Assembly: GCA_903835075.1 (NCBI GenBank)
Contig: CAILLM010000005.1
Location: 1 to 54,449, forward strand
Direction: 5' to 3'
Length of the DNA: 54,449 nt
Source: Candidatus Staskawiczbacteria bacterium
Lineage (GTDB): Bacteria > Patescibacteriota > Minisyncoccia > Minisyncoccales > Staskawiczbacteraceae
In this document: positions 9,706-54,279 of the stretch, piece after piece
How the letters are laid out: every line of letters starts with the position of its first letter
Numbering within the stretch: position 1 is the stretch's first letter
Notes under the pieces: model-generated
Told to the model about the DNA's origin: nothing
Databases searched by the model: none
The model's input: the letters and a program-made list of their open reading frames with translations, nothing else
Program-made: the position numbers and the translations under genes

Positions 9706-11424
9706 TTATCCTACTTCGTTTTGGTAACAAGTTTTACAATAAACAATTTCCGGGCGGTCTGGCGAATAGCTAGTTTCAAATTCATTAGTGCAACCTTCTT
9801 TCATGCAATGTCTGTGCCACAACTTAATTGGCGTACGTTGAGCCAACCTGGCAAAGTGACGACAATTTGGACAAAGATTTGGAATTGGTATTCCCATTTT
9901 TTTATAAAAATTTAGATCACTCGAAGTAATTTTAAAAGCTTCGGTGCATTGGTGATTGCATTTTCCTGCATGAGCGCAACCCACAACTTCTTTTAAAATT
10001 TCCTCTCCCACCCCCTCAATAGAATCGGGCACATCTTCTGCTTTTAATGTAATTGTATAATTTTTAGCAGAAAATTCTGCCCACCTATAGCCTTGTTTGG
10101 TTGCTTCTTCTTTTGTAATTGGAAAAAGTTCTTGCGCAATTGATTCGTTATATGCAAACCCATGAATCTCTAATGGAAAAGTTGAGCCATACCTCCATTC
10201 CCTACCCAAAGAATCAACATAGGGCATTTTATCCATGTGTTCAATAATTTTTGATACAAGTTCTTCGTATTCTTCTTTTGTGTATTGTTTGTTTAAGATG
10301 CAATATTGTTTTTTACGCAAACCAACGCAACCAAACAAATCTGATGAGCTATGACAATTTATACAATATTGTGCACGAATTAGTTGGTCCCAGCATTCGT
10401 TGGAAAAAGCAACAGAAGCACATTGTCTTCCAATGCTAGAACATTCATAAATAAGTTCTGAATTTTGCCCCCAATATGTATAATCCATTACATCTTTTCC
10501 ATCGGTAATTCCAAAAAGATATTTACCATCTTCAGCTTTTTCACAGTTAAACCCAAATTTTACATTTTTGCACTGTTCCAACCAATTACCAGAAATGTCT
10601 GTGCCGTGATTTTCAACCATCCAAGGAACAACATGCTTTAAAGAAAATTCTGTCATTTTCTTATGCATTTCTTCAACGCCTGCACGCGTTTTTGGCCAAA
10701 GAGTTTTAATTTTTTCTTTATATTCTTCTTTGGTATATTGCTCGTTAAAAATACAATAGTTTTTATTACGTAAATTTACGCATCCAAAACAATCTGTGCA
10801 GTTTTTGCAATTTAATAAAAACGCTGAATTTAAACAAGTATTGCATTCTCTTGAATAAATTAATCTGTTACAGCCGAAACAATCAACACAATCAAAACAT
10901 AATTCGCTAGAACGCAGGTTGTAGTTATCCATGCTATCTTTTGAATTCCATAGCGCTGTCCCATAAGAACAATTTTCATTTTTGTTAGCAGCAAACACCA
11001 AATAACAATCTTTATTATCACTAGCCCTATTAGTATATTCGCTGTTTACATTCGTCCCCTGCTGAATAATTCCCATTCTTGGTACTTTAAGAAATAAATC
11101 TTTAAACTGTTCAAAAAATGGTTTTGAAAAGTTATAATCTTTTTCATAAGATTGCCCATCCCACTTTTCAGACCACCAACAAGAATAACAATAAACAGTA
11201 TAGGGGCTATCAGGTGAGTATAATAAAATTTTGTCATTTCCACAAAGATTGCATTTTCTTTTGAAAAGTGACCGCTCGCCTCTCCACGCTAAACGTTTAA
11301 CCAACCTACATTCGGGACACCACGTTGGAGTAGGCACCTTCATTTTTTCGTAAAAGGCAAAGTCATCAACTTCAATTAAAAAGTCTTTCTTACAATTTTG
11401 ACATTCTTTACTTGCTTGTTCCAT
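9706..11424 (-). CDS. Cys-rich repeat protein with terminal zinc-ribbon-like CxxC pairs (paralog 1)
   Basis: CQNC/CPEC at N-term, CxxC/CFGC repeats, duplicated YCIxNxQYTKEEY, C-term CKTCY. Confidence 0.8.
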   Translation of the reverse strand: MEQASKECQNCKKDFLIEVDDFAFYEKMKVPTPTWCPECRLVKRLAWRGERSLFKRKCNLCGNDKILLYSPDSPYTVYCYSCWWSEKWDGQSYEKDYNFSKPFFEQFKDLFLKVPRMGIIQQGTNVNSEYTNRASDNKDCYLVFAANKNENCSYGTALWNSKDSMDNYNLRSSELCFDCVDCFGCNRLIYSRECNTCLNSAFLLNCKNCTDCFGCVNLRNKNYCIFNEQYTKEEYKEKIKTLWPKTRAGVEEMHKKMTEFSLKHVVPWMVENHGTDISGNWLEQCKNVKFGFNCEKAEDGKYLFGITDGKDVMDYTYWGQNSELIYECSSIGRQCASVAFSNECWDQLIRAQYCINCHSSSDLFGCVGLRKKQYCILNKQYTKEEYEELVSKIIEHMDKMPYVDSLGREWRYGSTFPLEIHGFAYNESIAQELFPITKEEATKQGYRWAEFSAKNYTITLKAEDVPDSIEGVGEEILKEVVGCAHAGKCNHQCTEAFKITSSDLNFYKKMGIPIPNLCPNCRHFARLAQRTPIKLWHRHCMKEGCTNEFETSYSPDRPEIVYCKTCYQNEVG

Positions 11425-11535
11425 ATTGTTTAATTCAATTATTTAATCCTACATCGTCTCGCCGAAGCTTTCAAGCGGAGGTGAGCGGCGCTAGGTTGAC
11501 ATCACTTCTCTGCGTTGATAGAATTAGGTAATTAG

Positions 11536-11606
11536 ACCGCTTAAGCGCTACCGCTTAAGCGGTCACCGAAAAGCGCTTAAGCGGTAGTCAAAAGCGCTTA
11601 AGCGGT
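11536..11606. repeat. array of four 14-bp palindromes ACCGCTTAAGCGGT (0-1 mismatch)
   Basis: Copies at 11536, 11550, 11572, 11593. Confidence 0.95.
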
Positions 11607-11647
11607 CCTTAAAATAAACGGATTTTCTAAAAAAAAATAACAAAAAA

Positions 11648-12358
11648 ATGAATAATAACGACTTTTTAACAATACAAGAATTTATTCAAAAATATGACGT
11701 TGCTGACATTAGAATCAGACGAAGAATTAGAAAGTACAAACTAGTTGACCCTCAAAAACTAGAGGGAAATTTAAGCGAAAGGCACGACAAAGGGGTCGGA
11801 AATATTATTCTTTTGAAAGAAAGTTTTTGGGTAAAAGAATTAGAAGCTGTAGCCAAAGAGACCGCTTATGCGCAACCGCTTAAGCGGTCAGACGAAAATG
11901 ACCAAAACCGCTTAAGCGGTACCCCCAACCGCAGAAGCGCCGAGTCTACCGACTATGCGGTCCCGCCAGAAACACCCGTACAAGCCGAACTTAACCGCTT
12001 AAGTGAAGCGGCATTGGCAGACAATCAAGTGGCTATTGATAAAGAATTTTTGGAGATATTGAAAGAAGACCGTGCTGAAAAAAAAGACTGGATTAAAAAA
12101 TATGATACCCTGCTGGTTGATTATAAAGCCAAAGATAATGAACTGGTGGAAAGAGAAAAGTTCTTGCAAGGTTTAATAGAAAAAGTAATTTCAGACGCCA
12201 GACACACAAAACAATTACTAGTGTCACAAATTCAGCACTTACAAAAACAACTTCACGCACCCAAAGAAGACCAGCCTTTCGGCGAAGCAGGAGAGGGGAC
12301 TGAATTTGAAAACGGCAACTTCACCGAAGCCGAAGAAAACAAGTCAATAAACGAATAA
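11648..12358 (+). CDS. putative DNA-binding protein: N-terminal HTH-like domain, repeat-encoded linker, coiled coil, acidic tail
   Basis: FLTIQEFIQKYDVADIRIRRRIRK resembles an excisionase/MerR-type HTH; heptad-rich second half; terminator follows. Confidence 0.65.
   Translation: MNNNDFLTIQEFIQKYDVADIRIRRRIRKYKLVDPQKLEGNLSERHDKGVGNIILLKESFWVKELEAVAKETAYAQPLKRSDENDQNRLSGTPNRRSAESTDYAVPPETPVQAELNRLSEAALADNQVAIDKEFLEILKEDRAEKKDWIKKYDTLLVDYKAKDNELVEREKFLQGLIEKVISDARHTKQLLVSQIQHLQKQLHAPKEDQPFGEAGEGTEFENGNFTEAEENKSINE
11861..12007. repeat. six intragenic copies of the 14-bp palindrome
   Basis: Perfect at 11875 and 11907; degenerate at 11861, 11928, 11948, 11994. Confidence 0.85.
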
Positions 12359-12372
12359 ATATTTATCCAAAC

Positions 12373-12398
12373 AAAAAAAGGGGACTAGCCCTTTTTTT
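12373..12398. terminator. bidirectional terminator
   Basis: A-tract, GGG/CCC stem, T-tract between convergent genes. Confidence 0.65.
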
Positions 12399-12425
12399 GT
12401 TATATACACACATTTAATCTATTTT

Positions 12426-12445
12426 AGGTTAACCATGGTTAACCT
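12426..12445. promoter_or_regulatory. perfect 20-bp palindrome AGGTTAACCATGGTTAACCT
   Basis: Read directly; shares a 16-bp core with 12678-12701. Confidence 0.75.
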
Positions 12446-12454
12446 GAGAAGTCC

Positions 12455-12640
12455 TTAATGTTTTATTATGGTTTTTAGTTTTTCTAAATCTATATCCTTT
12501 TTATAAATGATATAATCTCGTCCAATTTTTTGACCCAAAATTGAGCCCTGCCTTACTCTCTTAAAAACAGATATTCTACTGATGCCTAAAACTTTAGCCA
12601 GCTCCATTGTTGTATAATAATCTTTTTCTTTTATCTTCAT
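12455..12640 (-). CDS. small excisionase-like helix-turn-helix protein (HTH_17 type)
   Basis: YYTTMELAKVLGISRISVFKRVRQGSILGQKIGRDYII. Confidence 0.85.
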   Translation of the reverse strand: MKIKEKDYYTTMELAKVLGISRISVFKRVRQGSILGQKIGRDYIIYKKDIDLEKLKTIIKH

Positions 12641-12677
12641 TCTTTTAACCTTTAATATATTTATATTCTCTCACGCT

Positions 12678-12701
12678 TCAAGTTAACCATGGTTAACTTG
12701 A
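12678..12701. promoter_or_regulatory. perfect 24-bp palindrome TCAAGTTAACCATGGTTAACTTGA (operator-like)
   Basis: 37 bp upstream of the HTH gene start. Confidence 0.75.
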
Positions 12702-12732
12702 GTTTATTATACTATATTTTATCTATTTTAAC

Positions 12733-12761
12733 AAAAAGACCTACTGATTAGCAGGCCTTTT
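12733..12761 (-). terminator. terminator after comM
   Basis: AAAAAGACCTACT-GATT-AGCAGGCCTTTT, pairs with G-U on minus strand. Confidence 0.55.
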
Positions 12762-12765
12762 ATAT

Positions 12766-12793
12766 AATGCTTAAGCGCTACCGCTTAAGCGGT
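12766..12793. repeat. tandem pair of 14-bp palindromes overlapping the comM stop codon
   Basis: AATGCTTAAGCGCT-ACCGCTTAAGCGGT. Confidence 0.9.
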
Positions 12794-14320
12794 TTCAAAG
12801 TTTTTTGGAGAATATTGTAAGGCTTCGGCCATGTGGGGGACTGCAATTTCATCGACGCCATCTAAATCAGCAATTGTGCGCGCCACTTTTATCATTTTCA
12901 TATAGCTTCTTGCAGACAAGTTAAATTTTAAACTAGCTTGCCGTAATATTGCCTCAACATCTTTGGCCAGTTTGCAATATTTTTTAATGTGGCTATTTTT
13001 CATTTGGCTGTTTGAGCAAATGGTTTCTGTTGCAAAACGTGCTTCTTGTTTTTGTCTGGCCTGCATTACTCTTTTTCTTATTTTATCAGAAGCCTCTAAA
13101 AATTCAGAATTTTTTTGGTTATCCTCAAACTCAGTTGCGTCAACTGGCATAACAGAAATGTGTAAATCAATTCTATCTAAAATTGGCCCTGAAATTCTTT
13201 TTTGATATTTTTGAATTTGGTTTTGGCTACAGTTACAACTCTTTTTTGGGTGAAGTGCATATCCGCAAGGGCAGGGGTTGGCACTAGCTACCAACATAAA
13301 ATCAGCAGGGTAGGTGATGCGTTGCCTACTTCGCGATATTGTTAAATAACCATCTTCTAATGGTTGGCGAAGTGCTTCCATAATTGTACGGGGAAATTCA
13401 TTGAACTCATCTAAAAATAAAACTCCTCTGTGTGCCAAACTTATTTCACCAGGTTGTGGCTTTGAGCCACCGCCAACTAACCCAGCCAAAGAAGCTGTGT
13501 GATGTGGCGCACGAAACTGTCTGTTTGTGATTAGGCTTCCACCAGGTGGGATTCCACCAGAAGCTGAATAAATTTTTGTTACTTCCAAACTTTCTACATC
13601 ATTTAGTGGTGGCAAAATGCCTGGTAGGGCACGCGCCAACATCGTTTTTCCAGAACCAGGAGAGCCAATCATAATTATATTATGCCCACCAGCTGCTGCA
13701 ATTTCCATTGCTCTTTTTGCTTGCTCTTGCCCCAAGACTTCTTTCATATCAAATTCAACAATAGATTTTTTATCATCTTTAACGGCCTTATAAATAATGG
13801 GAAAAATTTCTTCTTGTCCCAAAAAATGTCTACACAATTGCCCAATGTCTTCAACTGGAAAAACTTTTACTCCTTTTATGGCGGCAGCCTCATTTGCGGA
13901 GTCTTTGGGTACATACAAATTTGTGTACCCAGATTCTTTTGCAAAAAGTGCCATTAAAAAAGCGCCCTTGGTGTGACGCAAACTTCCATCGAAAGATAAT
14001 TCTCCTAAAAATAATGACTTTTGTGGAATGGGAAATTCTAACACACTACTTAAAATTCCCAGGGCAATTGGTAAATCATACATTGAGCCCTCTTTTGGCA
14101 CATCAGCTGGCGCCATGTTTACAGTAATTTTTTTAGCAGGAAAATCAACATCACTGCTTTGTATGGCTGTGCGCACCCTTTCTTTGCTTTCATCAACTGC
14201 TTTACCAGCCAATCCCACAATTTCAAACCCTGGCAAACCTTTGTTAGCTAAATTAATTTCAATATCAACCTTTATTGTTTCCAACCCCAAGTTAACTATT
14301 GATGGCACTTTAATAAGCAT
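12785..14320 (-). CDS. comM: YifB/ComM Mg-chelatase-like AAA+ ATPase
   Basis: ITVNMAPADVPKEG, Walker A GSPGSGKT, PGEISLAHRGVLFLDE, NPCPCG, LSARSY. Confidence 0.95.
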   Translation of the reverse strand: MLIKVPSIVNLGLETIKVDIEINLANKGLPGFEIVGLAGKAVDESKERVRTAIQSSDVDFPAKKITVNMAPADVPKEGSMYDLPIALGILSSVLEFPIPQKSLFLGELSFDGSLRHTKGAFLMALFAKESGYTNLYVPKDSANEAAAIKGVKVFPVEDIGQLCRHFLGQEEIFPIIYKAVKDDKKSIVEFDMKEVLGQEQAKRAMEIAAAGGHNIIMIGSPGSGKTMLARALPGILPPLNDVESLEVTKIYSASGGIPPGGSLITNRQFRAPHHTASLAGLVGGGSKPQPGEISLAHRGVLFLDEFNEFPRTIMEALRQPLEDGYLTISRSRQRITYPADFMLVASANPCPCGYALHPKKSCNCSQNQIQKYQKRISGPILDRIDLHISVMPVDATEFEDNQKNSEFLEASDKIRKRVMQARQKQEARFATETICSNSQMKNSHIKKYCKLAKDVEAILRQASLKFNLSARSYMKMIKVARTIADLDGVDEIAVPHMAEALQYSPKNFETA

Positions 14321-14333
14321 ATTTTTTATACTT

Positions 14334-14361
14334 ACCGCTTAAGCGCTACCGCCTATGCGGT
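14334..14361. repeat. tandem pair of 14-bp palindromes upstream of comM
   Basis: ACCGCTTAAGCGCT-ACCGCCTATGCGGT, 13 bp from the start codon. Confidence 0.9.
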
Positions 14362-14391
14362 TATTTATTAATTTTATTTTTAAATAAATTT

Positions 14392-16101
14392 TTATGCAAC
14401 TTCTGCGTTATAACATTGCTCGCAATAAATAATTTCTGGCCTGGTGGGGGAGTAAGAAGATTGAATTTCTTTTGAACATTTTGCACATTGGCGATTCCAC
14501 AATTTGAATGGCGTACGTTGATGCAATCTGTTGTAGTGTCTGCAATTTGAGCATAGTCTTGGCAATGGCAAATTCATTGCACGGTAAAAAGCAAGTTCTG
14601 ATGGAATAATTTTAAAAGCTCCTGTGCATTGTTCGTTGCAATTACCCGCATGCTCGCAGGCTATAACTTGATTTAAAATGTCATCAGAAACATCTTTTAT
14701 ATGGTCGGGTAAATCAGCCGACTGAATTGTAATTTTATACTGCTTAACATCGGGCTCACGCCAATTAAATCCTTCTTCTAAAATTTCTTGTTTTGTTTTT
14801 GTGTAATATTCTTGCGCTATTGTTTCATTGTAGGCAAAGGGCGAAAGATCAGCAGGAAAAAATTCTCCATATTTGTATGTTCTTCCTTTTTTATCTACAT
14901 ACGGCATTTCATTCATTTGCTCAATAATTTTTGCTCTTAAAATTTCGTATTCTTCTTTTGTATATTGCTTGTTTAAAATACAATACTGTTTACTTCGCAA
15001 CCCCACACATCCAAATAAATCTTTTGAATTTTTGCAGGCATAAGTGTAATCAGTATTTTGGCAAGAATGAGTAAAAATAGAAAAAAGATTACGGGTGGCA
15101 TTGTCTCCCGTGTCTACAACCTCGTAAGAATTATTAAAATTTGCGCCGGCACCATAAGCATCATAAATATTGTTCATTTCCGCCGCATGAATGACATATT
15201 TACAATCTTCAACATCATTAAATATGTCAAAACCCATAAATATATTTTTAGAGTTCATAACGTTACCTCCTATAACATTTGCAGATTTATGGATAAATCC
15301 ATATCGTCTCGGATACTGTTTTATAAATTCAGCGAACCTTTTTCTAAAATCGCAAAGAACCTTATAACTACCAAAATCATATTTTGCCCTCTCTTTTGCA
15401 TAATCTTCTTTGGTATATTGTTCATTAAAAATGCAGTTTGATTTATTACGTAAATTTATGCAACCCAAAGAATCCATCATATTTTTGCAAGCATGAAGAA
15501 ACGAGCAGTTAACACTTTCGTCGCTGTCATAAGAGAAAAAAACATGATTTAAGCTTGAGCACAAGGTATTGTTATAACAATGAGTTTGATTAATCGCTTT
15601 ATAGAGGTCAAGGGAATTTTTACATTCCATAGCTCCAGCACAATATGACAAATCTTCACTTCTTAAGCTGGCATAAAAAAGATAACAATCCTTCATATCG
15701 AGGCTGTGGTTGCCGTACTCAGAATTTATACAATTAGAATTTGCCAAATTGGGTAAGGGTGCTTCTTCAAATAGTTCACGAAACTGCTGGAAGAAAGTTT
15801 TTGAAAAATCATACTCACGCTCAACCGCAAGTTGATCCCATTTGTCTGACCACCAATAATCTCTTTCATAAACAACTAGCGGTTGTTCGGGCGCAAACAT
15901 TGTAATAATATCTTTGCCAGTTGCATCACATTTTCTTTTATATAATGTGCGCTCATTTCTCCAATTCATTCGCCTAATTATTCTGCAGTCTGGGCAAAAG
16001 GTTGGTGCGGGCACCTTCATTTTTTCATAAAAATCAAAATCCTCGGCCTCTATTACAAAGTCTTTTTTACAATTTTGGCACACTTTATTTTCTTGTTCCA
16101 T
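14392..16101 (-). CDS. Cys-rich repeat protein with terminal zinc-ribbon-like CxxC pairs (paralog 2)
   Basis: Colinear with 9706-11424: CQNCKKDF, WWSDKWD, LFGCVGLR, CEHAGNCNEQC, CEQCY. Confidence 0.8.
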   Translation of the reverse strand: MEQENKVCQNCKKDFVIEAEDFDFYEKMKVPAPTFCPDCRIIRRMNWRNERTLYKRKCDATGKDIITMFAPEQPLVVYERDYWWSDKWDQLAVEREYDFSKTFFQQFRELFEEAPLPNLANSNCINSEYGNHSLDMKDCYLFYASLRSEDLSYCAGAMECKNSLDLYKAINQTHCYNNTLCSSLNHVFFSYDSDESVNCSFLHACKNMMDSLGCINLRNKSNCIFNEQYTKEDYAKERAKYDFGSYKVLCDFRKRFAEFIKQYPRRYGFIHKSANVIGGNVMNSKNIFMGFDIFNDVEDCKYVIHAAEMNNIYDAYGAGANFNNSYEVVDTGDNATRNLFSIFTHSCQNTDYTYACKNSKDLFGCVGLRSKQYCILNKQYTKEEYEILRAKIIEQMNEMPYVDKKGRTYKYGEFFPADLSPFAYNETIAQEYYTKTKQEILEEGFNWREPDVKQYKITIQSADLPDHIKDVSDDILNQVIACEHAGNCNEQCTGAFKIIPSELAFYRAMNLPLPRLCSNCRHYNRLHQRTPFKLWNRQCAKCSKEIQSSYSPTRPEIIYCEQCYNAEVA

Positions 16102-16137: not shown

Positions 16138-17031
16138 TTAGTTGAGGTAATATTTCCCATTATCTAAATTTATAAAACCCTTCAATTGCATAAGCGATAG
16201 GGAAGTGCCCAACTTGGCAACGGGAACCGAAAACAACCGCGCCATTTCGTCGGCTTTTAATGGCTCACGTTTTAATTGCTCAATAATTTTTTGTTCTAAA
16301 TTATCACCAGTATTTGCTGTAACTTTAGACTTGGCAGGTATCAATGTTTTTTGAGCTCCTGGTAAAACTTTAAAAAAATCTAAAATATCTTTTGCTTCGG
16401 TCACTGGGTATGCGCCCTCTTTAATAAGTTTAATTGTTCCTTTTGAAACTTCGCTTGTAATAGGTCCAGGAAGTGCAAAAATCTTTTTGCCAAATTTTGT
16501 GGCGTAACTAGCTGTAATTAAAGAGCCGGACTCTAAGGCAGCTTCTGTAACTAAAACTGCTTTTGATAATCCGGCTACAATTCTGTCCCTTTGAACATAG
16601 GTAAAAATTTGTGGTTGGGTTTTGCCCTCGTACTCAGAAATAATCAAGCCACCTGTGTCTAAAATTTCTTCATAAAGTTTTTTCTGGCTTGCTGGGTGAA
16701 TTAAATCAATTCCGCAAGGCATTACAGCAATAGTTTTTCCGCCACACTTAACTGCTGCAGAATGAGCTGCTTCATCGCCCCCATACATAAACCCCGAAAC
16801 AATTGTAACTCCTGCTGCAGCAACTTCTGTTACTAGCTGTTCGGTGGCTTTTCGGCCGTAATATGTTAAGTGGCGCGACCCAACAACAGACAAACAGTTT
16901 CTGAAAATATCTGGACTCCAATTACCTTTGTAATATAATTTTTTAGGCCCCAAACTTGCGCCAATTTTTTTCAATGCTTCTTTTAAAACTTTAGGATATT
17001 TATCACTATTGACCTCAACGACTTCTGCCAT
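16138..17031 (-). CDS. dprA: DNA processing protein DprA
   Basis: SVVGSR, IVSGFMYGGD, RDRIVAGLS, SGSLITA, ALPGPI, C-terminal winged helix. Confidence 0.94.
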   Translation of the reverse strand: MAEVVEVNSDKYPKVLKEALKKIGASLGPKKLYYKGNWSPDIFRNCLSVVGSRHLTYYGRKATEQLVTEVAAAGVTIVSGFMYGGDEAAHSAAVKCGGKTIAVMPCGIDLIHPASQKKLYEEILDTGGLIISEYEGKTQPQIFTYVQRDRIVAGLSKAVLVTEAALESGSLITASYATKFGKKIFALPGPITSEVSKGTIKLIKEGAYPVTEAKDILDFFKVLPGAQKTLIPAKSKVTANTGDNLEQKIIEQLKREPLKADEMARLFSVPVAKLGTSLSLMQLKGFINLDNGKYYLN

Positions 17032-27296: not shown

Positions 27297-27369
27297 GCCC
27301 TCGTGGTGAAATCGGATATCACACTTGGCTTCGAACCAAGAATTCCGGGTTCGAGTCCTGGCGAGGGCA
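27297..27369 (+). tRNA. tRNA-Arg(TCG)
   Basis: GCCCTCG/CGAGGGC stem, anticodon arm CTTGG-CTTCGAA-CCAAG. Confidence 0.93.
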
Positions 27370-27370
27370 C

Positions 27371-27392
27371 ACTTCGACAAGTTCAGTGCAAG
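27371..27392 (+). repeat. REP-like element after tRNA-Arg
   Basis: ACTTCGACAAGTTCAGTGCAAG. Confidence 0.6.
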
Positions 27393-27410
27393 CCTAAATT
27401 TAAAAAATTT

Positions 27411-27791
27411 ATGAAAAAAATACTATCATCTCTGGCTATATTATTTTTATTATCAATAATCTTTGTGCCCACCTCAATTTATGCAGCAGACCAAGGATGG
27501 GTGACTTGTGGTAATGGAGACAACCCAACCCCCTGCACTTTGACTGATTTTCTAGATATGACTAAGAAAATTTTAGATTTTCTTGTAAACACGATAGCAG
27601 CACCACTAGCAGGAGTAGCAATTATAGTTGGGGGTATTCTTATGATGACTTCAGCTGGTAACCCAAATTTAATGGGCTTGGGAAAGAAAATTTTTTGGTC
27701 TGCAATTATAGGGCTAATATTAGCATTTGCTGCTAAGGCAATAATAAACTTTGTTCTAATTGCAATTGGTTGGCAAGGAGCCAAACTATAA
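27411..27791 (+). CDS. TrbC/VirB2-like pilin (CPR T4SS pilin type)
   Basis: Signal peptide ending IYA, C..C loop, two TMs linked by TSAGNP; start set after the tRNA. Confidence 0.75.
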   Translation: MKKILSSLAILFLLSIIFVPTSIYAADQGWVTCGNGDNPTPCTLTDFLDMTKKILDFLVNTIAAPLAGVAIIVGGILMMTSAGNPNLMGLGKKIFWSAIIGLILAFAAKAIINFVLIAIGWQGAKL

Positions 27792-37122: not shown

Positions 37123-37144
37123 CTACCTTAAAATTTTTAGATGG
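37123..37144. repeat. 22-bp direct repeat, left (contains traX stop)
   Basis: CTACCTTAAAATTTTTAGATGG, 21/22 match to 37904-37925. Confidence 0.8.
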
Positions 37145-37826
37145 AGTGTGCGATTAAGCCCAGCACAAATATGTGAAGGGGATAGAATGTATAAAATATA
37201 TATTTAGAATAATAACCCCTTTGGCCATTATAATATTTAAGTAAACACAGCGGTATTAAATATCCAAACTGAATTGCAAACCATATAATTGGCAAAGCTA
37301 TATTTATAGAAGAATATGCAAATTTCATTTGACCTATAAAAAGTACAAGCAATATAAGTTGGATAAAAAACAATTTATAAAAATCCTTTTTTATATCAAA
37401 CAAGTAAAAAGAGAAAATTAGTAAAATACCAAAAAAACCAAAACCAAGACCTATATAATTACAAAAAATAGCAACCATAAAAACTACGGCAAGGGCATCT
37501 TTTTTGTTAGCTATGTGGTCATATAAATATAAGGCTAGCAACCCAAAAAATAAGTCTGCAAAAATATTTAGCTTTTCTATGCGTGGATTAAAAGTATATT
37601 GATAAATTGGCTGGGAAATAACAAAAAAAATAAAAATACGAAATAAATATTTTTTGATATTTTTTGTATGACGATACCCCTCTACTGCCAAAAATGCAAA
37701 TATTGGGAATGCTAACCTGCCAGCTATTCTTAAAATAATTAATTTTGGAAAAAAAAGATAGCAAACATGGTCAGCCAACATTGATAAACAAGCTATAACC
37801 TTTAAATGAAAAGAGTTTATGTTCAT
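37137..37826 (-). CDS. traX: TraX family membrane protein
   Basis: LKVIACLSMLADH, GRLAFPIFAFL.VEGY.HT, YNGQRG, FYTFYPLH. Confidence 0.88.
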   Translation of the reverse strand: MNINSFHLKVIACLSMLADHVCYLFFPKLIILRIAGRLAFPIFAFLAVEGYRHTKNIKKYLFRIFIFFVISQPIYQYTFNPRIEKLNIFADLFFGLLALYLYDHIANKKDALAVVFMVAIFCNYIGLGFGFFGILLIFSFYLFDIKKDFYKLFFIQLILLVLFIGQMKFAYSSINIALPIIWFAIQFGYLIPLCLLKYYNGQRGYYSKYIFYTFYPLHIFVLGLIAHSI

Positions 37827-42101: not shown

Positions 42102-42509
42102 ATGGAACAATATCCTATACCACAATTTATTGAACAAGAAAGTAGAATTGCTTTCTTTATTTCATTTAGACAGTTTTTCTACTTGGTGGGGGCGGGGGTT
42201 CTTTGCTTTTTTCTATATTTTACTTTGCCTCGCATTATTTTTTATATCGCTTCGGCAGTTATTGCTGTTGCCTCGGTAATTCTTGCATTTGGAACAATAA
42301 ATGGCACGCCCATTTTGAATGTAATTTTAGGGTCAATTGGTTTTTCATTTGGTGGTAAAAATTACACTTGGAGTAAAAAAGAATCGCCATATCCTTTCAA
42401 GCCAATTCAACGAACCCAAATTAAAAAAATAGATTCAGGGCCAGTTTTAAAAGCACAAAACAGCCAACTAAAAAGAACAAAAACTTTAATTGATTTAAAA
42501 ACAAAATAA
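42102..42509 (+). CDS. PrgI family protein (VirB3-like)
   Basis: YPIPQFIEQESRI...SFRQF, two TMs, upstream of virB4. Confidence 0.8.
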   Translation: MEQYPIPQFIEQESRIAFFISFRQFFYLVGAGVLCFFLYFTLPRIIFYIASAVIAVASVILAFGTINGTPILNVILGSIGFSFGGKNYTWSKKESPYPFKPIQRTQIKKIDSGPVLKAQNSQLKRTKTLIDLKTK

Positions 42510-43178: not shown

Positions 43179-44984
43179 ATGAAATTTTTAGATAATCTTT
43201 TAGGTAAAAAAGAGCAAGACCTTACTGAGCAAATTTTTCAAGAAGAAGCTTTTGATGTAAAAGATATTATTGCTCCGCCATATATTGGGGTTTTGCAAGA
43301 CCACATAAAATTGGGCGAGCGTTTGGCAAAATCTTTTTTTGTTTTTTCTTATCCCCGTTATTTAAACACTGGATGGTTTTCACCTGTTATAGATTTAAAC
43401 ACTCCAATGGACATTTCATTTTTTATACATCCTGTAAGTTCAGAATTAATTTTAAAAAAATTAAGAAAAAAAGTTACGGAAGTTTCTTCAGAATTGTTGG
43501 AAAGGGAAGAGAAGGGCTTGATTAGAGATCCTGCTTTGGAAACCGCTTACAAAGACATTGAAACATTAAGAGATAACTTAATGACTGCTCAAGAAAAAAT
43601 GTTTCGGCTGGGTTTATATATTACAATTTATGAAACTTCTGAAAAAGAATTACGCGACACTGAGCTTACTTTAAGATCAATTTTTGAATCTAGATTAATT
43701 TATATTAAGCCTGCATTGTTTAAACAAAAAGAAGGATTTATTTCTTGCAACCCATATGGAATGGATTTAATTAATGTTCACACTCCAATGGATACGGCCC
43801 CACTTTCAACTTGTTTCCCATTTATTTGTTTTGACCTAAGTTCTAATGAAGGAATTTTATATGGCATAAATAGACATAATAATTCTTTAGTTTTATTTGA
43901 TAGATTTAGTTTGGAAAATGCTAACATGGTTGTTTTTGCTAAAGCTGGTTCTGGAAAGTCTTATGCAATTAAACTAGAAATTTTAAGATATTTAATGCAA
44001 GGCGTGGACGTAATTATTATTGACCCAGAAAATGAATATGAAGTTTTGGCTGATTCTGTTGGCGGTTCATTTTTAAAAATTTCTTTAACTTCTGCAAATC
44101 ACTTAAACCCTTTTGATTTACCCGTGCCTGGGCCAGATGATAATCCTCAAGATATTTTAAGATCTAATGTTATCAACTTGGTTGGACTTTTGCGAATTAT
44201 GTTGGGCGGGCTAACGCCAGAAGAAGACAGTATTTTAGATGAAGCTTTAACACAAACATATGCTGTGCGTGATATTACTGCTGAATCAGATCCAAAAACC
44301 TGGGCAAACAATACTCCGCTCATGTCTGACTTCCAAGAAATTTTAGAAAGTATGACTGGTACAGAATCTTTGGTAAAACGTATTGGTAAATTTACTAAAG
44401 GAACTTTTGCTGATTTCTTTAACCAACAATCTAATATTTCTTTAGACAAAAACTTTGTTGTTTTTGGAATAAGAGACATGGAAGAATCTTTAAGGCCAAT
44501 TGCTTTATACATTGTTATGAGATATATTTGGAACATTGTAAGATCAAAATTGAAAAAAAGAATTTTAGTTATTGATGAAGCTTGGTGGCTTATGCAATCA
44601 GCTGACGGAGCATCATTTCTTTTTGGTCTTGTAAAAAGAGGAAGAAAATATTGGCTGGGAGTTACAACAATTACTCAGGATGTGTCTGACTTTATGAAGT
44701 CTGATTATGGCAAGGCAATTATTACAAACTCTTCATTACAACTTTTAATGAAACAATCTACTGCTGACATTGATACTGTGCAAAAAGTTTTTAATTTAAC
44801 AGAACAGGAAAAATATTTATTGTTGGGAGCATCAATTGGAGAAGGATTATTTTTCGCAGGTAAAAAACATGTGTTTCTTTCTGTTGTTGCCAGCCAAACA
44901 GAAAACCAAATAATCACAACTAACCCACAAGAAGTTTTAGCAAATAGGGAAGCGAAGAAAAATCTGGAATCATCAAAAAATTAA
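43179..44984 (+). CDS. virB4: VirB4-like type IV secretion ATPase
   Basis: Walker A AKAGSGKS, IIDPENEY, Walker B LVIDEAW, RKY, ITQ. Confidence 0.9.
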   Translation: MKFLDNLLGKKEQDLTEQIFQEEAFDVKDIIAPPYIGVLQDHIKLGERLAKSFFVFSYPRYLNTGWFSPVIDLNTPMDISFFIHPVSSELILKKLRKKVTEVSSELLEREEKGLIRDPALETAYKDIETLRDNLMTAQEKMFRLGLYITIYETSEKELRDTELTLRSIFESRLIYIKPALFKQKEGFISCNPYGMDLINVHTPMDTAPLSTCFPFICFDLSSNEGILYGINRHNNSLVLFDRFSLENANMVVFAKAGSGKSYAIKLEILRYLMQGVDVIIIDPENEYEVLADSVGGSFLKISLTSANHLNPFDLPVPGPDDNPQDILRSNVINLVGLLRIMLGGLTPEEDSILDEALTQTYAVRDITAESDPKTWANNTPLMSDFQEILESMTGTESLVKRIGKFTKGTFADFFNQQSNISLDKNFVVFGIRDMEESLRPIALYIVMRYIWNIVRSKLKKRILVIDEAWWLMQSADGASFLFGLVKRGRKYWLGVTTITQDVSDFMKSDYGKAIITNSSLQLLMKQSTADIDTVQKVFNLTEQEKYLLLGASIGEGLFFAGKKHVFLSVVASQTENQIITTNPQEVLANREAKKNLESSKN

Positions 44985-52923: not shown

Positions 52924-54279
52924 ATGAACAATATAGAACTCTGGCAATCAGTCCTATCACAAATGCAGTTCCACATCTCTAGAGCGAATTTTGCTACTTG
53001 GTTTCAAAACACAGAAATTATTTCTAAAGACAATGAAAAAATAATAATTTCTGTCCCAAATGCTTTTTCTAAAGAGTGGTTAAGCAATAAATATAATAAG
53101 TTAATTTTAAAGACTCTTCACGATATAGACGACTCTATAAGAGAGTTGGAATTTGTAATAAAACCACAGCCAATCAAAAATACACCAATAAAGAATACAT
53201 CTGGAATAGAGGAGCAGGAAGAAATCCAATTAAAATTTGAAGAATTTAAAATAAATAAGGAAACCAACCTTAATCCACGATATACATTTAATAGTTTTGT
53301 AGTTGGCTCATTTAATGAATTGGCGCATGCAGCGGCACTAGCAGTAGCAGACAACCCTGGTTTTACTTATAACCCTTTATTTATTTATGGTGGTACGGGC
53401 TTAGGAAAAACACACTTAATACAAGCTATTGGAAATAAAATAAATGACGAACTAAAAAAGAAAAAAATAAAGTATATTTCTTCTGAAAAATTTGTTTCTA
53501 GCATTGTTTCTGCTATTAGAACAAACACAATGGAAACATTTAAGGCTAGTTTGGCGCCTATTGATGTTTTGATTTTAGATGACATACAATTTATTGCTGG
53601 AAAAAATAAAAGCCAAGAAGAGTTTTTTCATATTTTTAATTCTTTATATGAAAAAAATAAACAAATAATTCTTTCCTCAGATAGACCGCCTAATGCTATC
53701 GCCGAACTTGAAGACAGATTAAGGTCTAGGTTTGAAGGGGGGATGATAGCTGACGTCAGCTTACCAGACTATGAAACAAGATTAGTTATTTTAAAAACAA
53801 AATTGCAAGAAAAAAATGCCGACTTGCCAGAAGATGTTTTAGACTATATTGCTGCTAATGTTAAAAAAAATATTCGGGAGCTAGAGGGCGCTTTAAATAA
53901 AATTTTAATTCATAATAAAATAAACCCTGGATTAAATCTAGAAATGGTTAAAAAACTACTTAGAGGTTTTGTTTTTTCTCCATTCGATGTAGCAAATTAC
54001 AAAAAAATAATTGAAACAGTGGCCAAATTTTACAACTTAGAAGAAAAAAATTTATTTGATCCAACAAGAAGAAAGGAAATTGTAAAACCAAGACAAGTTG
54101 CTATGTTCTTATTAAGGAAAGAATTAAAATATTCTTTTCCAGCTATTGCTAGAAAGTTTGGCGGGAAAGACCACACAACAGCAATTTACGCTTTTAAAAA
54201 GATTGAAGCGGAAAATGAAGAAAACAACAAATTAACAGAAGAATTAAACCTAATAAAACAGAGAATATACAGTGGATAA
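52924..54279 (+). CDS. dnaA: chromosomal replication initiator DnaA
   Basis: YNPLFIYGGTGLGKTHL, DDIQF, RSRF.GG, NIRELEGAL, DHTT. Confidence 0.98.
   Translation: MNNIELWQSVLSQMQFHISRANFATWFQNTEIISKDNEKIIISVPNAFSKEWLSNKYNKLILKTLHDIDDSIRELEFVIKPQPIKNTPIKNTSGIEEQEEIQLKFEEFKINKETNLNPRYTFNSFVVGSFNELAHAAALAVADNPGFTYNPLFIYGGTGLGKTHLIQAIGNKINDELKKKKIKYISSEKFVSSIVSAIRTNTMETFKASLAPIDVLILDDIQFIAGKNKSQEEFFHIFNSLYEKNKQIILSSDRPPNAIAELEDRLRSRFEGGMIADVSLPDYETRLVILKTKLQEKNADLPEDVLDYIAANVKKNIRELEGALNKILIHNKINPGLNLEMVKKLLRGFVFSPFDVANYKKIIETVAKFYNLEEKNLFDPTRRKEIVKPRQVAMFLLRKELKYSFPAIARKFGGKDHTTAIYAFKKIEAENEENNKLTEELNLIKQRIYSG

Follow-up and report, generated by a model that had tools for sequence, protein, structure and literature searches.

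RacA of Bacillus subtilis joins a winged helix to a coiled coil through a disordered region, and its site is a 14-bp GC-rich palindrome that forms clusters near the replication origin, according to the accessible part of one report (PMC4914108). The available portion of a second source describes a winged helix, a coiled coil and a disordered C-terminus as an architecture common to RacA, Par and RocS (PMC11500499). Binding sites may also lie within a gene: an extract of PMC6022878 places ori-lambda within gene O, where in-frame deletions are tolerated. Here we describe a 54,449-nt stretch of a Candidatus Staskawiczbacteria contig (CAILLM010000005.1; the window), which contains a gene for a 236-aa protein, named HTHCC here, together with arrays of a 14-bp palindrome in the leader and coding region of that gene and further copies on either side of the neighbouring transformation gene, comM. 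We favour the reading, at a probability of about one half, that the palindrome is the cognate site of the adjacent HTHCC and that gene and sites form a self-contained, autoregulated cassette near the origin, resembling RacA and pSK1 Par, with the comM copies as satellites. To our knowledge, almost nothing is known about chromosome organisation, segregation or competence control in the Candidate Phyla Radiation (CPR), or Patescibacteria.

The repeated unit is a perfect 14-bp palindrome, ACCGCTTAAGCGGT, and two abutting units make up a 28-mer. A preliminary description of the same DNA had reported this 28-mer at 11536, 11861 (degenerate), 12766 and 14334, and direct reading of the sequence confirmed all four. 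The 28-mer at 11536-11563 consists of ACCGCTTAAGCGCT and ACCGCTTAAGCGGT, that at 11861-11888 of a degenerate and a perfect copy, that at 12766-12793 of AATGCTTAAGCGCT (12766-12779, degenerate with three mismatches) and a perfect copy, and that at 14334-14361 of a one-mismatch and a two-mismatch copy. Further copies, beyond those listed earlier, were found at 11572, 11593 and 11907, with degenerate ones at 11928, 11948 and 11994. At up to two mismatches, ACCGCTTAAGCGGT occurs nine times in the window compared to 0.02 expected, a number reached in none of 100 shuffles, and all nine copies are confined to 11536-14361. At up to four mismatches, 14 copies were found in 11300-14500 (four upstream of the HTHCC gene, six inside it and two at each end of comM), compared to 0.29 per kb in the remaining window. 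All eight places at up to one mismatch in the 794,466-bp assembly fall within C5:11536-14347. A genome-wide repeat, such as a DNA uptake sequence or a repetitive extragenic palindromic (REP) element with many copies, was ruled out because all copies in the 794-kb assembly lie within 2.8 kb at this single locus.

The copies at the HTHCC gene belong to a compact cassette. A near-consensus sigma-70-type promoter (11496..11524, plus strand; TTGACA, 17 nt ending TGA, TAGAAT) is the top promoter-like match of the region in the promoter scan (11/12, with TG). It is followed by the upstream array (11536..11606), four copies at 11536, 11550, 11572 and 11593 in the presumed 5′ leader, and by the HTHCC gene (11648..12358, plus strand), whose product is predicted to comprise a winged helix (residues 5-64), a linker (65-109), a helix (110-203) and an acidic tail. 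The internal array (11861..12007) has six copies (11861, 11875, 11907, 11928, 11948 and 11994, two of them perfect), which lie in the linker codons and use all three reading frames. A terminator-like hairpin with a T run follows the HTHCC stop codon (12373..12399, plus strand); it was recognised by eye and was not flagged by the scan.

The same anatomy recurs among the relatives. All 23 loci fetched via HTHCC carry 7-14 copies, and in all 22 loci compared (L063 was left out as truncated at its 5′ end and L065 as identical to L064) four to eight copies stand directly upstream of the ATG and two to six internal copies at +213 to +356. The sequence TTGACA, 17 nt ending TGN, TA(G/A/T)AAT, with a gap of 8-12 nt to the first copy, was found in 19 of the 22; the exceptions were L060, whose promoter lies at a greater distance upstream, L062, which meets a contig end, and L069, which lacks a −35. 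Given the position of the promoter, the upstream array takes up about +1 to +100 of the leader. Measured from centre to centre, the copies were spaced by 14 (72 cases), 19-22 (64 cases) or 32-33 bp (28 cases), and the spacers between non-abutting copies were short and recurred between loci. Collectively, the alignments support an operator-like placement of the copies after the cassette promoter. The preliminary description had proposed that the repeats were either operators or att-like sites; the first part is consistent with this placement, as well as with the 5′ doublet of comM, which a weak −10-like hexamer recognised by eye precedes by 9 nt, while the att-like sites found no support, as discussed below.

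The internal copies allowed the constraint on the DNA to be separated from that on the protein. The linker peptides PLKRS, NRLSG and TAYA represent the three reading frames of the palindrome. In the frame ACC GCT TAA, where TAA would end translation, TAT stands in all 25 internal copies and perfect copies are absent; of the 73 internal copies read in the two remaining frames, 52 are perfect. Among 245 copies, positions 4, 7, 8, 11 and 12 are invariant. The substitution patterns of the aligned loci show that selection keeps the DNA word and not the peptide. At pair 2-13 of the palindrome, the 245 copies contain 36 changes on the left only, 44 on the right only and one double change, compared to 6.8 doubles expected. 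These one-sided changes speak for a site in double-stranded DNA, made up of two half-sites, rather than for an RNA hairpin under selection. A search of Rfam returned no family at the gathering score, and its three sub-threshold matches were at chance level.

Gene and sites also co-occur. Arrays, of 10-13 places, were found in only four of 60 relatives (G004, G011, G024 and G025, all of the same genus), and four other relatives have one single 1-mismatch match each. A search of the 60 relatives for the HTHCC protein returned exactly the same four, at 72-85% identity, and neither array nor HTHCC gene was found in the other 56. The tie between the repeats and a helix-turn-helix (HTH) coiled-coil gene, as proposed in the preliminary description, is upheld by these counts, since arrays accompany the gene in four of four relatives and the repeats are not kept in relatives that lack it. 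The family itself is small: 46 proteins at 60-100% identity were found among 5.8 billion clusters, none with a Pfam domain and with Candidatus Staskawiczbacteria as the only named source, and an HTHCC profile gave only 12 matches among 1.84 billion representatives. A broader profile applied to 400 sampled genomes of the class gave nothing convincing, with two marginal matches to the HTH only. Our literature searches returned no paper on the HTHCC family or its sites. Some distant relatives (P0050-P0055) keep the N-terminal motif FLTIxEF..KY.V.D...RRR and the coiled coil. Their linker peptides ERLS and LRLS could, judging by the protein sequence alone, be read from a CGCTTAAGCG core. In P0053 and P0055, short basic-aromatic tails replace the acidic FENGNFTE tail; with hydrophobic moments of 0.32 and 0.40 (ranks 106 of 286 and 44 of 189 windows), these tails are unremarkable as membrane helices.

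HTHCC has no match in Pfam (E <= 0.01), NCBIfam or PHROG, and a profile search against Protein Data Bank (PDB) sequences found only a lamin coiled coil (E 0.054). The full-length model consists of an N-terminal domain (5-64), a disordered region (65-109; predicted local distance difference test, pLDDT, below 50), one long helix (110-203) and a disordered acidic tail. Folded alone, the N-terminal domain reached a pLDDT of 87 and a predicted template-modelling score (pTM) of 0.72. In a structural search independent of Foldseek, its top match was 2kvv (Z 6.2, root-mean-square deviation (rmsd) 2.9, 60 aligned), followed by the ParA2 N-terminus (Z 5.9), Tn916 Xis (Z 5.1), MerR-type regulators (Z about 4-4.5), the pSK1 Par DNA-binding domain 8csh (Z 4.3) and RacA 5i41 (Z 3.9, rmsd 2.8, 52 aligned). 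The models suggest, at middling fold scores, that the N-terminal domain is an excisionase/MerR-type winged helix. Two copies of residues 105-236 were modelled as a parallel, in-register coiled coil with an ipSAE of 0.52, compared to 0.02 for the best of three controls; at least 75% of contacts were shared between runs and pLDDT was at least 73. The mark used for calling a dimer is reached by 20 of 30 solved homodimers and by one of 23 monomers. The modelled homodimer would fit recognition of a palindrome by a dimer. Within the tail motif FENGNFTE, residues G223, F225 and E227 are invariant in 30 sequences, which suggests that the conserved tail may be a partner-binding peptide.

The position of the cassette on the chromosome was examined in the window and in relatives. 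The dnaA gene occupies 52924-54279 of the window, 41 kb from the cassette; in G024 the two are 44 kb apart, in G011 36 kb and in G004 20 kb. The minimum of the cumulative GC skew in the window lies at about 25 kb, where the gene strand switches; the cassette is 13 kb and dnaA about 28 kb away. DnaA boxes were not enriched, with 14 matches compared to 15.9 expected, and no cluster of them lies at this minimum. In the 738-kb contig of G004, the skew traces a clean V that bottoms out at 550 kb and peaks at 195 kb; its cassette (558 kb) lies 8 kb beyond the minimum, its comM (543 kb) 7 kb before it, and the minimum opens a flat valley at 550-600 kb that contains dnaA. These positions are a weak indication that both cassette placements may be origin-proximal. 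Of the 26 genomes of the genus, nine have a ParB_N (PF02195) match, and almost every match falls in an open frame of 380-500 aa. The usual chromosomal ParB is shorter than this, and canonical ParABS may be absent from much of the genus.

In the window, comM (12785..14320, minus strand) encodes a Mg-chelatase/ComM-type AAA+ protein of 511 aa (Pfam Mg_chelatase, 4.5e-93, with ChlI and Mg_chelatase_C), and a satellite doublet stands at each of its ends. The preliminary description had placed one 28-mer 13 bp from the comM start and the comM stop codon within another, and both statements proved correct. The 5′ doublet (14334..14361) ends 13 nt before the ATG, and its homologues in L050 and L052 precede the ATG by 11 and 26 nt. 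In the 3′ doublet (12766..12793), the perfect copy at 12780-12793 reads ACC GCT TAA on the minus strand, that is, the last two codons and the stop of comM; homologous doublets occur in six other loci. A weak promoter-like site for comM (14371..14399, minus strand; TTGCAT, 17 nt, TAAAAT) was seen by eye. It ends 9 nt before the 5′ doublet, overlaps the stop of the upstream gene and, with three of six −35 matches, falls under the threshold of the promoter scan. Downstream of the 3′ doublet, a terminator-like hairpin of comM was likewise seen by eye (12730..12760, minus strand), with equivalents in L057, L060 and L065.

Comparison with other loci shows how the comM copies may have arisen. A copy at the 3′ end of comM was found in seven of 11 loci (window, L051, L057, L058, L060, L063 and L065), sited before the terminator-like hairpin and retained although the downstream sequence has diverged beyond alignment. 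A copy within 120 nt of the comM ATG was found in four of ten assessable loci (window, L050, L052 and L071); in the window, L050 and L052 these ATG-proximal doublets show clear homology and therefore count as one event. Copies stand 409-603 nt upstream of comM in L051, L061 and L065, and comM is flanked on both sides in the window, L051 and L065. In relatives without the cassette, comM natively ends in GAA AC(C/A/T) GC(T/A) TAA/TAG, and in one of them (G019, locus L030) its last codons and stop are ACCGCTTAA, exactly the left nine letters of the palindrome, with unrelated letters after them. As read from these alignments, the conserved E-T-A-stop C-terminus of comM is a ready-made half-site. 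The left half therefore pre-existed, and the overlap with the stop codon reflects a completion of the site rather than an insertion that replaced the end of the gene. The 12 comM loci without an adjacent cassette, G004 among them, carry no copy (up to three mismatches, 120 nt upstream and 160 nt downstream, with one 5′ flank absent at a contig end). All 13 copies of G004 lie in 558344-558873, and its comM, 14 kb off, has none.

These results can be combined into a working model. HTHCC dimers would load on the dense array, which would shut off the strong promoter of their own gene and build a large protein-DNA complex in an origin-proximal part of the chromosome, where the conserved tail would recruit a partner. 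The copies bracketing comM would be satellites of the array in the nearest intergenic spacers, the 3′ one built on the existing half-site. Bound satellites would probably serve either as a roadblock where comM begins or as a bridge to the main array, lowering comM expression as a side effect and not as the core function. The G004 cassette, with sites only at its own gene, favours a device made of cis sites and an adaptor over a regulator of another gene. A bolder form of this model, which we regard as tentative, regards the cassette of these ultrasmall CPR bacteria as a one-gene 'kinetochore' that is portable: an adaptor similar to RacA and Par, with its centromere in its own leader and linker codons next to the origin, might tether or organise the origin region where no canonical-length ParB is found, and the satellites might draw comM into a silenced complex.

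Several observations weigh against the favoured reading. The fold scores are middling, a Z under 8 can reflect a common arrangement, and excisionases outscore RacA and Par. Foldseek gave no match at E <= 0.001 for either the full-length or the N-terminal model, and no sequence homology to RacA, Par or any Pfam family was detectable. The evidence for origin proximity is weak because the two placements are only about 20 kb apart, and a short-range relocation explains them equally well. ParB_N occurs in one of five genomes with HTHCC and in eight of 21 without it, which is not a complementary pattern. HTHCC is confined to a subclade, in five of 26 genus genomes, and its kin therefore have no need of it for general segregation. 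The loci are themselves kin, such that the counts given here overstate the number of independent events. We know of no anchoring partner of HTHCC. Lastly, the 5′ doublet of comM stands directly after a promoter-like site, a position that fits an ordinary repressor equally well.

Such a repressor is the first alternative: HTHCC may be dedicated to silencing comM (and HTH17, a neighbouring HTH gene, or yraN) by looping its 5′ and 3′ copies to the main array, with the array at its own gene serving autoregulation only. In the window, L050 and L052, the doublet follows a weak promoter-like site and precedes the ATG by 11-26 nt, which speaks for this, as do the modelled coiled-coil dimer and the frequency of copies around comM (within about 600 nt upstream in seven of ten assessable loci, and at the 3′ end in seven of 11). 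In G002, moreover, another palindrome occupies the same spot before comM, which appears to be a regulated gene. In contrast, G004 carries 13 sites at the HTHCC gene while its comM is free of them, L053 has long flanks with no gene of the comM cluster nearby, and L062 has none downstream; these two loci form a well-supported clade with L067 and L070, which are too short to tell their comM neighbourhood. In addition, 8-14 sites far exceed the needs of autoregulation, the 3′ copies stand before the terminator of comM and not at its promoter, and the ATG-adjacent 5′ copies look like one inherited event. We therefore consider a dedicated comM repressor rather unlikely. The position of the G004 cassette, 14 kb from a copy-free comM, indicates that control of comM is not the core function of the cassette, and the "competence switch" of the preliminary description is at most a possible role.

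A second alternative holds that the palindromes are att-like or crossover sites that move, invert or excise the cassette or comM. Gene order is indeed shuffled only in the genomes that carry the repeat. Genus members without the cassette keep a tight dprA-comM-yraN-nusA operon, frequently with an overlap of comM and yraN; where the cassette is present, Cys-rich genes, HTH17, small open reading frames (ORFs) and the cassette itself interrupt the operon, and the satellites lie in the new spacers. In the window, the breaking insertions include a Cys-rich gene of 572 aa (9706..11424, minus strand) and its paralogue of 569 aa (14392..16101, minus strand), the latter between dprA (16138-17031) and comM. 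HTH17, an excisionase/MerR-type HTH gene of 61 aa (12455..12640, minus strand), is a neighbour that is not always present; its product matches HTH_17 at 2.3e-5, below the cut-off, and TIGR01764 at 28.9 bits compared to a cut-off of 28.8. The cassette stands in at least five contexts, including yraN/comM and Cys/HTH17: between nusA and yraN (L051, L056, L060, L061, L064/65), after yraN (L058, L066, L068, L069), between HTH17 and comM (L050, L052, L071), after a Cys-rich gene (window, L054), beyond a PPase gene (L059) and between a LysM-M23 gene and dksA (G004). The fold of the N-terminal domain is also nearest to excisionases.

Other evidence makes recombination improbable as the function of the sites. 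No recombinase, integrase, resolvase or transposase family was found in any of the 48 window ORFs scanned, as the preliminary description had already noted for recombinases, and none was seen beside the G004 cassette. The same description had suggested looking for empty sites with a single 28-mer in the dprA-comM-yraN loci of relatives, and for reads that show junctions or circles between the repeats. None of the 12 empty loci carries a copy, and the assembled contigs of four runs contain no joint at the repeat, which is weak evidence because the Logan contigs used (four DNA runs of one study, possibly the source) drop rare variants. These contigs reproduced the arrangement of the window in pieces, with many joints, all of them among the Cys-rich paralogues and their relatives. 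No RNA sequencing runs with the sequence were listed. No inversions were seen even though a palindrome would allow them, and the cassette gene is antisense to its neighbours in every locus. In the protein tree some context classes are grouped, with a support of 95/94 for the G004-type set; since the contexts partly follow the tree, a handful of relocations would account for them.

The third alternative takes the copies as iterons of a lambda O/ori-lambda-like origin, either that of a small replicon that has integrated or an auxiliary origin of the chromosome that HTHCC fires. This would account for sites that sit within the linker codons of the protein presumed to bind them and whose number varies in frame. 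We judge it very improbable, as neither the cassette nor its neighbours showed a helicase loader, primase or Rep domain, another array stands outside the gene, in the leader, and the GC-skew minimum is 8-13 kb from the cassette and not at it. An RNA-level element, with the palindromes acting as transcribed hairpins or guide-like units, is scarcely credible, because, although all cassette copies would be transcribed if the promoter is real and one preprint describes stem-loop TIGR arrays that lie upstream of tas genes and inside them, in disordered parts, Staskawiczbacteria included (10.64898/2026.09.09.750476), the would-be stem shows no compensatory changes, the units abut or have short conserved rather than variable spacers, neither genome nor HTHCC has a Nop-domain match, and no Rfam family reached its gathering score.

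The surroundings of the cassette contain other repeats and genes. The two Cys-rich paralogues, of about 570 aa, have treble-clef-like CxxC ends and weak Pfam matches only; they lie 4680 bp apart and frame the segment of cassette and comM. In relatives, the locus has one such gene, two in tandem (L054) or none. A second palindrome, GTTAACCATGGTTAAC, unrelated to ACCGCTTAAGCGGT, stands 3′ of HTH17 (12428..12447), with a second copy 5′ of it (12678..12697), just after a promoter-like site (12734-12706, minus strand). The form GGTTAAC-N4/5-GTTAACC occurs on both sides of HTH17 in the window and five relatives (L050, L052, L055, L064/65 and L071), an arrangement that mirrors the bracketing of comM. 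There are five copies of this palindrome in the genome (including G000 C2:57986, C4:51425 and C7:12161), some of them neighbours of Cys-rich paralogues; one precedes a gene whose encoded protein, by our own reading, starts like a 5′-3′ exonuclease. A similar GGTTAAC-type palindrome lies 60 nt before comM in G002, and also before yraN in L064/65. The GGTTAAC palindrome is probably the own operator of the HTH17 protein.

Several relatives have, in their locus spacers, a hairpin of roughly 90 nt whose arms resemble gcgaggcaa.aaacttttt / aaaaagtttgttgccgagcg. It is next to the cassette in L055, L056, L058, L061 and L064, and in the comM 3′ flank of G012 (L032) and G001 (L036), cassette-free genomes included. 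From its sequence it looks like a small miniature inverted-repeat transposable element (MITE) or REP-type repeat. In the window, the interval from the skew minimum to dnaA holds genes of a type IV secretion-like kind (27303-27791, 37137-37826, 42102-42509 and 43179-44984); the set comprises a TrbC/VirB2-type pilin, TraX, a PrgI-family protein and a TraG/VirB4-like ATPase.

What is unusual about this locus is the combination of an array in the leader and linker codons of one gene, a portable cassette and satellites that embrace a transformation gene. HTHCC is a small protein of no described family, whose presumed 14-bp site is kept intact by selection inside its own coding sequence, and the cassette is a clean example of DNA signals shaping a linker peptide. 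It is compact enough to be testable in E. coli. If the RacA/Par-like reading is true, single-protein centromere or anchor systems extend beyond Firmicutes, and if the 'kinetochore' reading is true, competence is tied to chromosome organisation. The cassette is also a candidate handle on comM expression in this lineage, and natural competence has been shown experimentally for Saccharibacteria, as stated in the available part of PMC10187176.

Known systems share single features with the cassette. The operators lac O2 inside lacZ and gal OI inside galE are auxiliary operators that act through DNA looping. Similarly, a promoter-proximal operator is combined here with a second some hundred bp downstream in a coding region, and the presumed repressor is oligomeric; in contrast to the one site per place of lac and gal, there are 4-8 plus 2-6 here, the second set lies in the gene of the regulator itself, and satellites are found several kb away. 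With lambda O the cassette shares sites in the inter-domain linker codons of the binder's own gene and a tolerance of in-frame changes in copy number, as far as the extract of PMC6022878 describes them; O is however a replication initiator with a partner, P, whereas no replication gene is evident at the cassette, and a second array lies in the leader. The TIGR-Tas systems, as described in the preprint, have arrays upstream of and inside the associated gene, where they fall in disordered regions and leave the frame unbroken, and they are reported from CPR bacteria including Staskawiczbacteria (10.64898/2026.09.09.750476). Membership of this group was ruled out: PF01798 is found neither in the genome (E <= 1) nor in HTHCC, there are no variable spacers (72 abutting spacings) and the stem shows no covariation.

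The two closest systems are pSK1 Par and RacA. The sites of pSK1 Par are mostly direct repeats, compared to palindromes here, and Chan et al. 2022 reportedly found the repeats of pSK1 par upstream of its own gene. HTHCC differs further in being chromosomal and not plasmid-borne, in the extra array inside the coding region, in lacking a DUF536 (PF04394) match, and in its tail, which is acidic with FENGNFTE and not a MinD-like membrane helix. The resemblance lies in the winged helix, the central coiled coil, the disordered C-terminal part and the use of a single protein without an NTPase partner, as the available portion of PMC11500499 describes Par. DUF536/HTH_ParB clusters are also among the Atlas feature neighbours of HTHCC at 0.88, which is a lead only. 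Compared to RacA, the HTHCC sites are packed into 1-3 kb at and inside the gene itself and are not spread over the origin region, and the proteins have no detectable sequence homology, with a fold match to 5i41 of only Z 3.9. Both proteins nevertheless have a MerR-type winged helix, a disordered connector and a coiled coil, those of HTHCC being taken from models and those of RacA from the accessible part of its report (PMC4914108). By the same partial account, RacA shares with the cassette a 14-bp GC-rich palindrome in an AT-rich genome and clusters of sites, which lie near the origin for RacA and may do so for HTHCC, their presumed binder.

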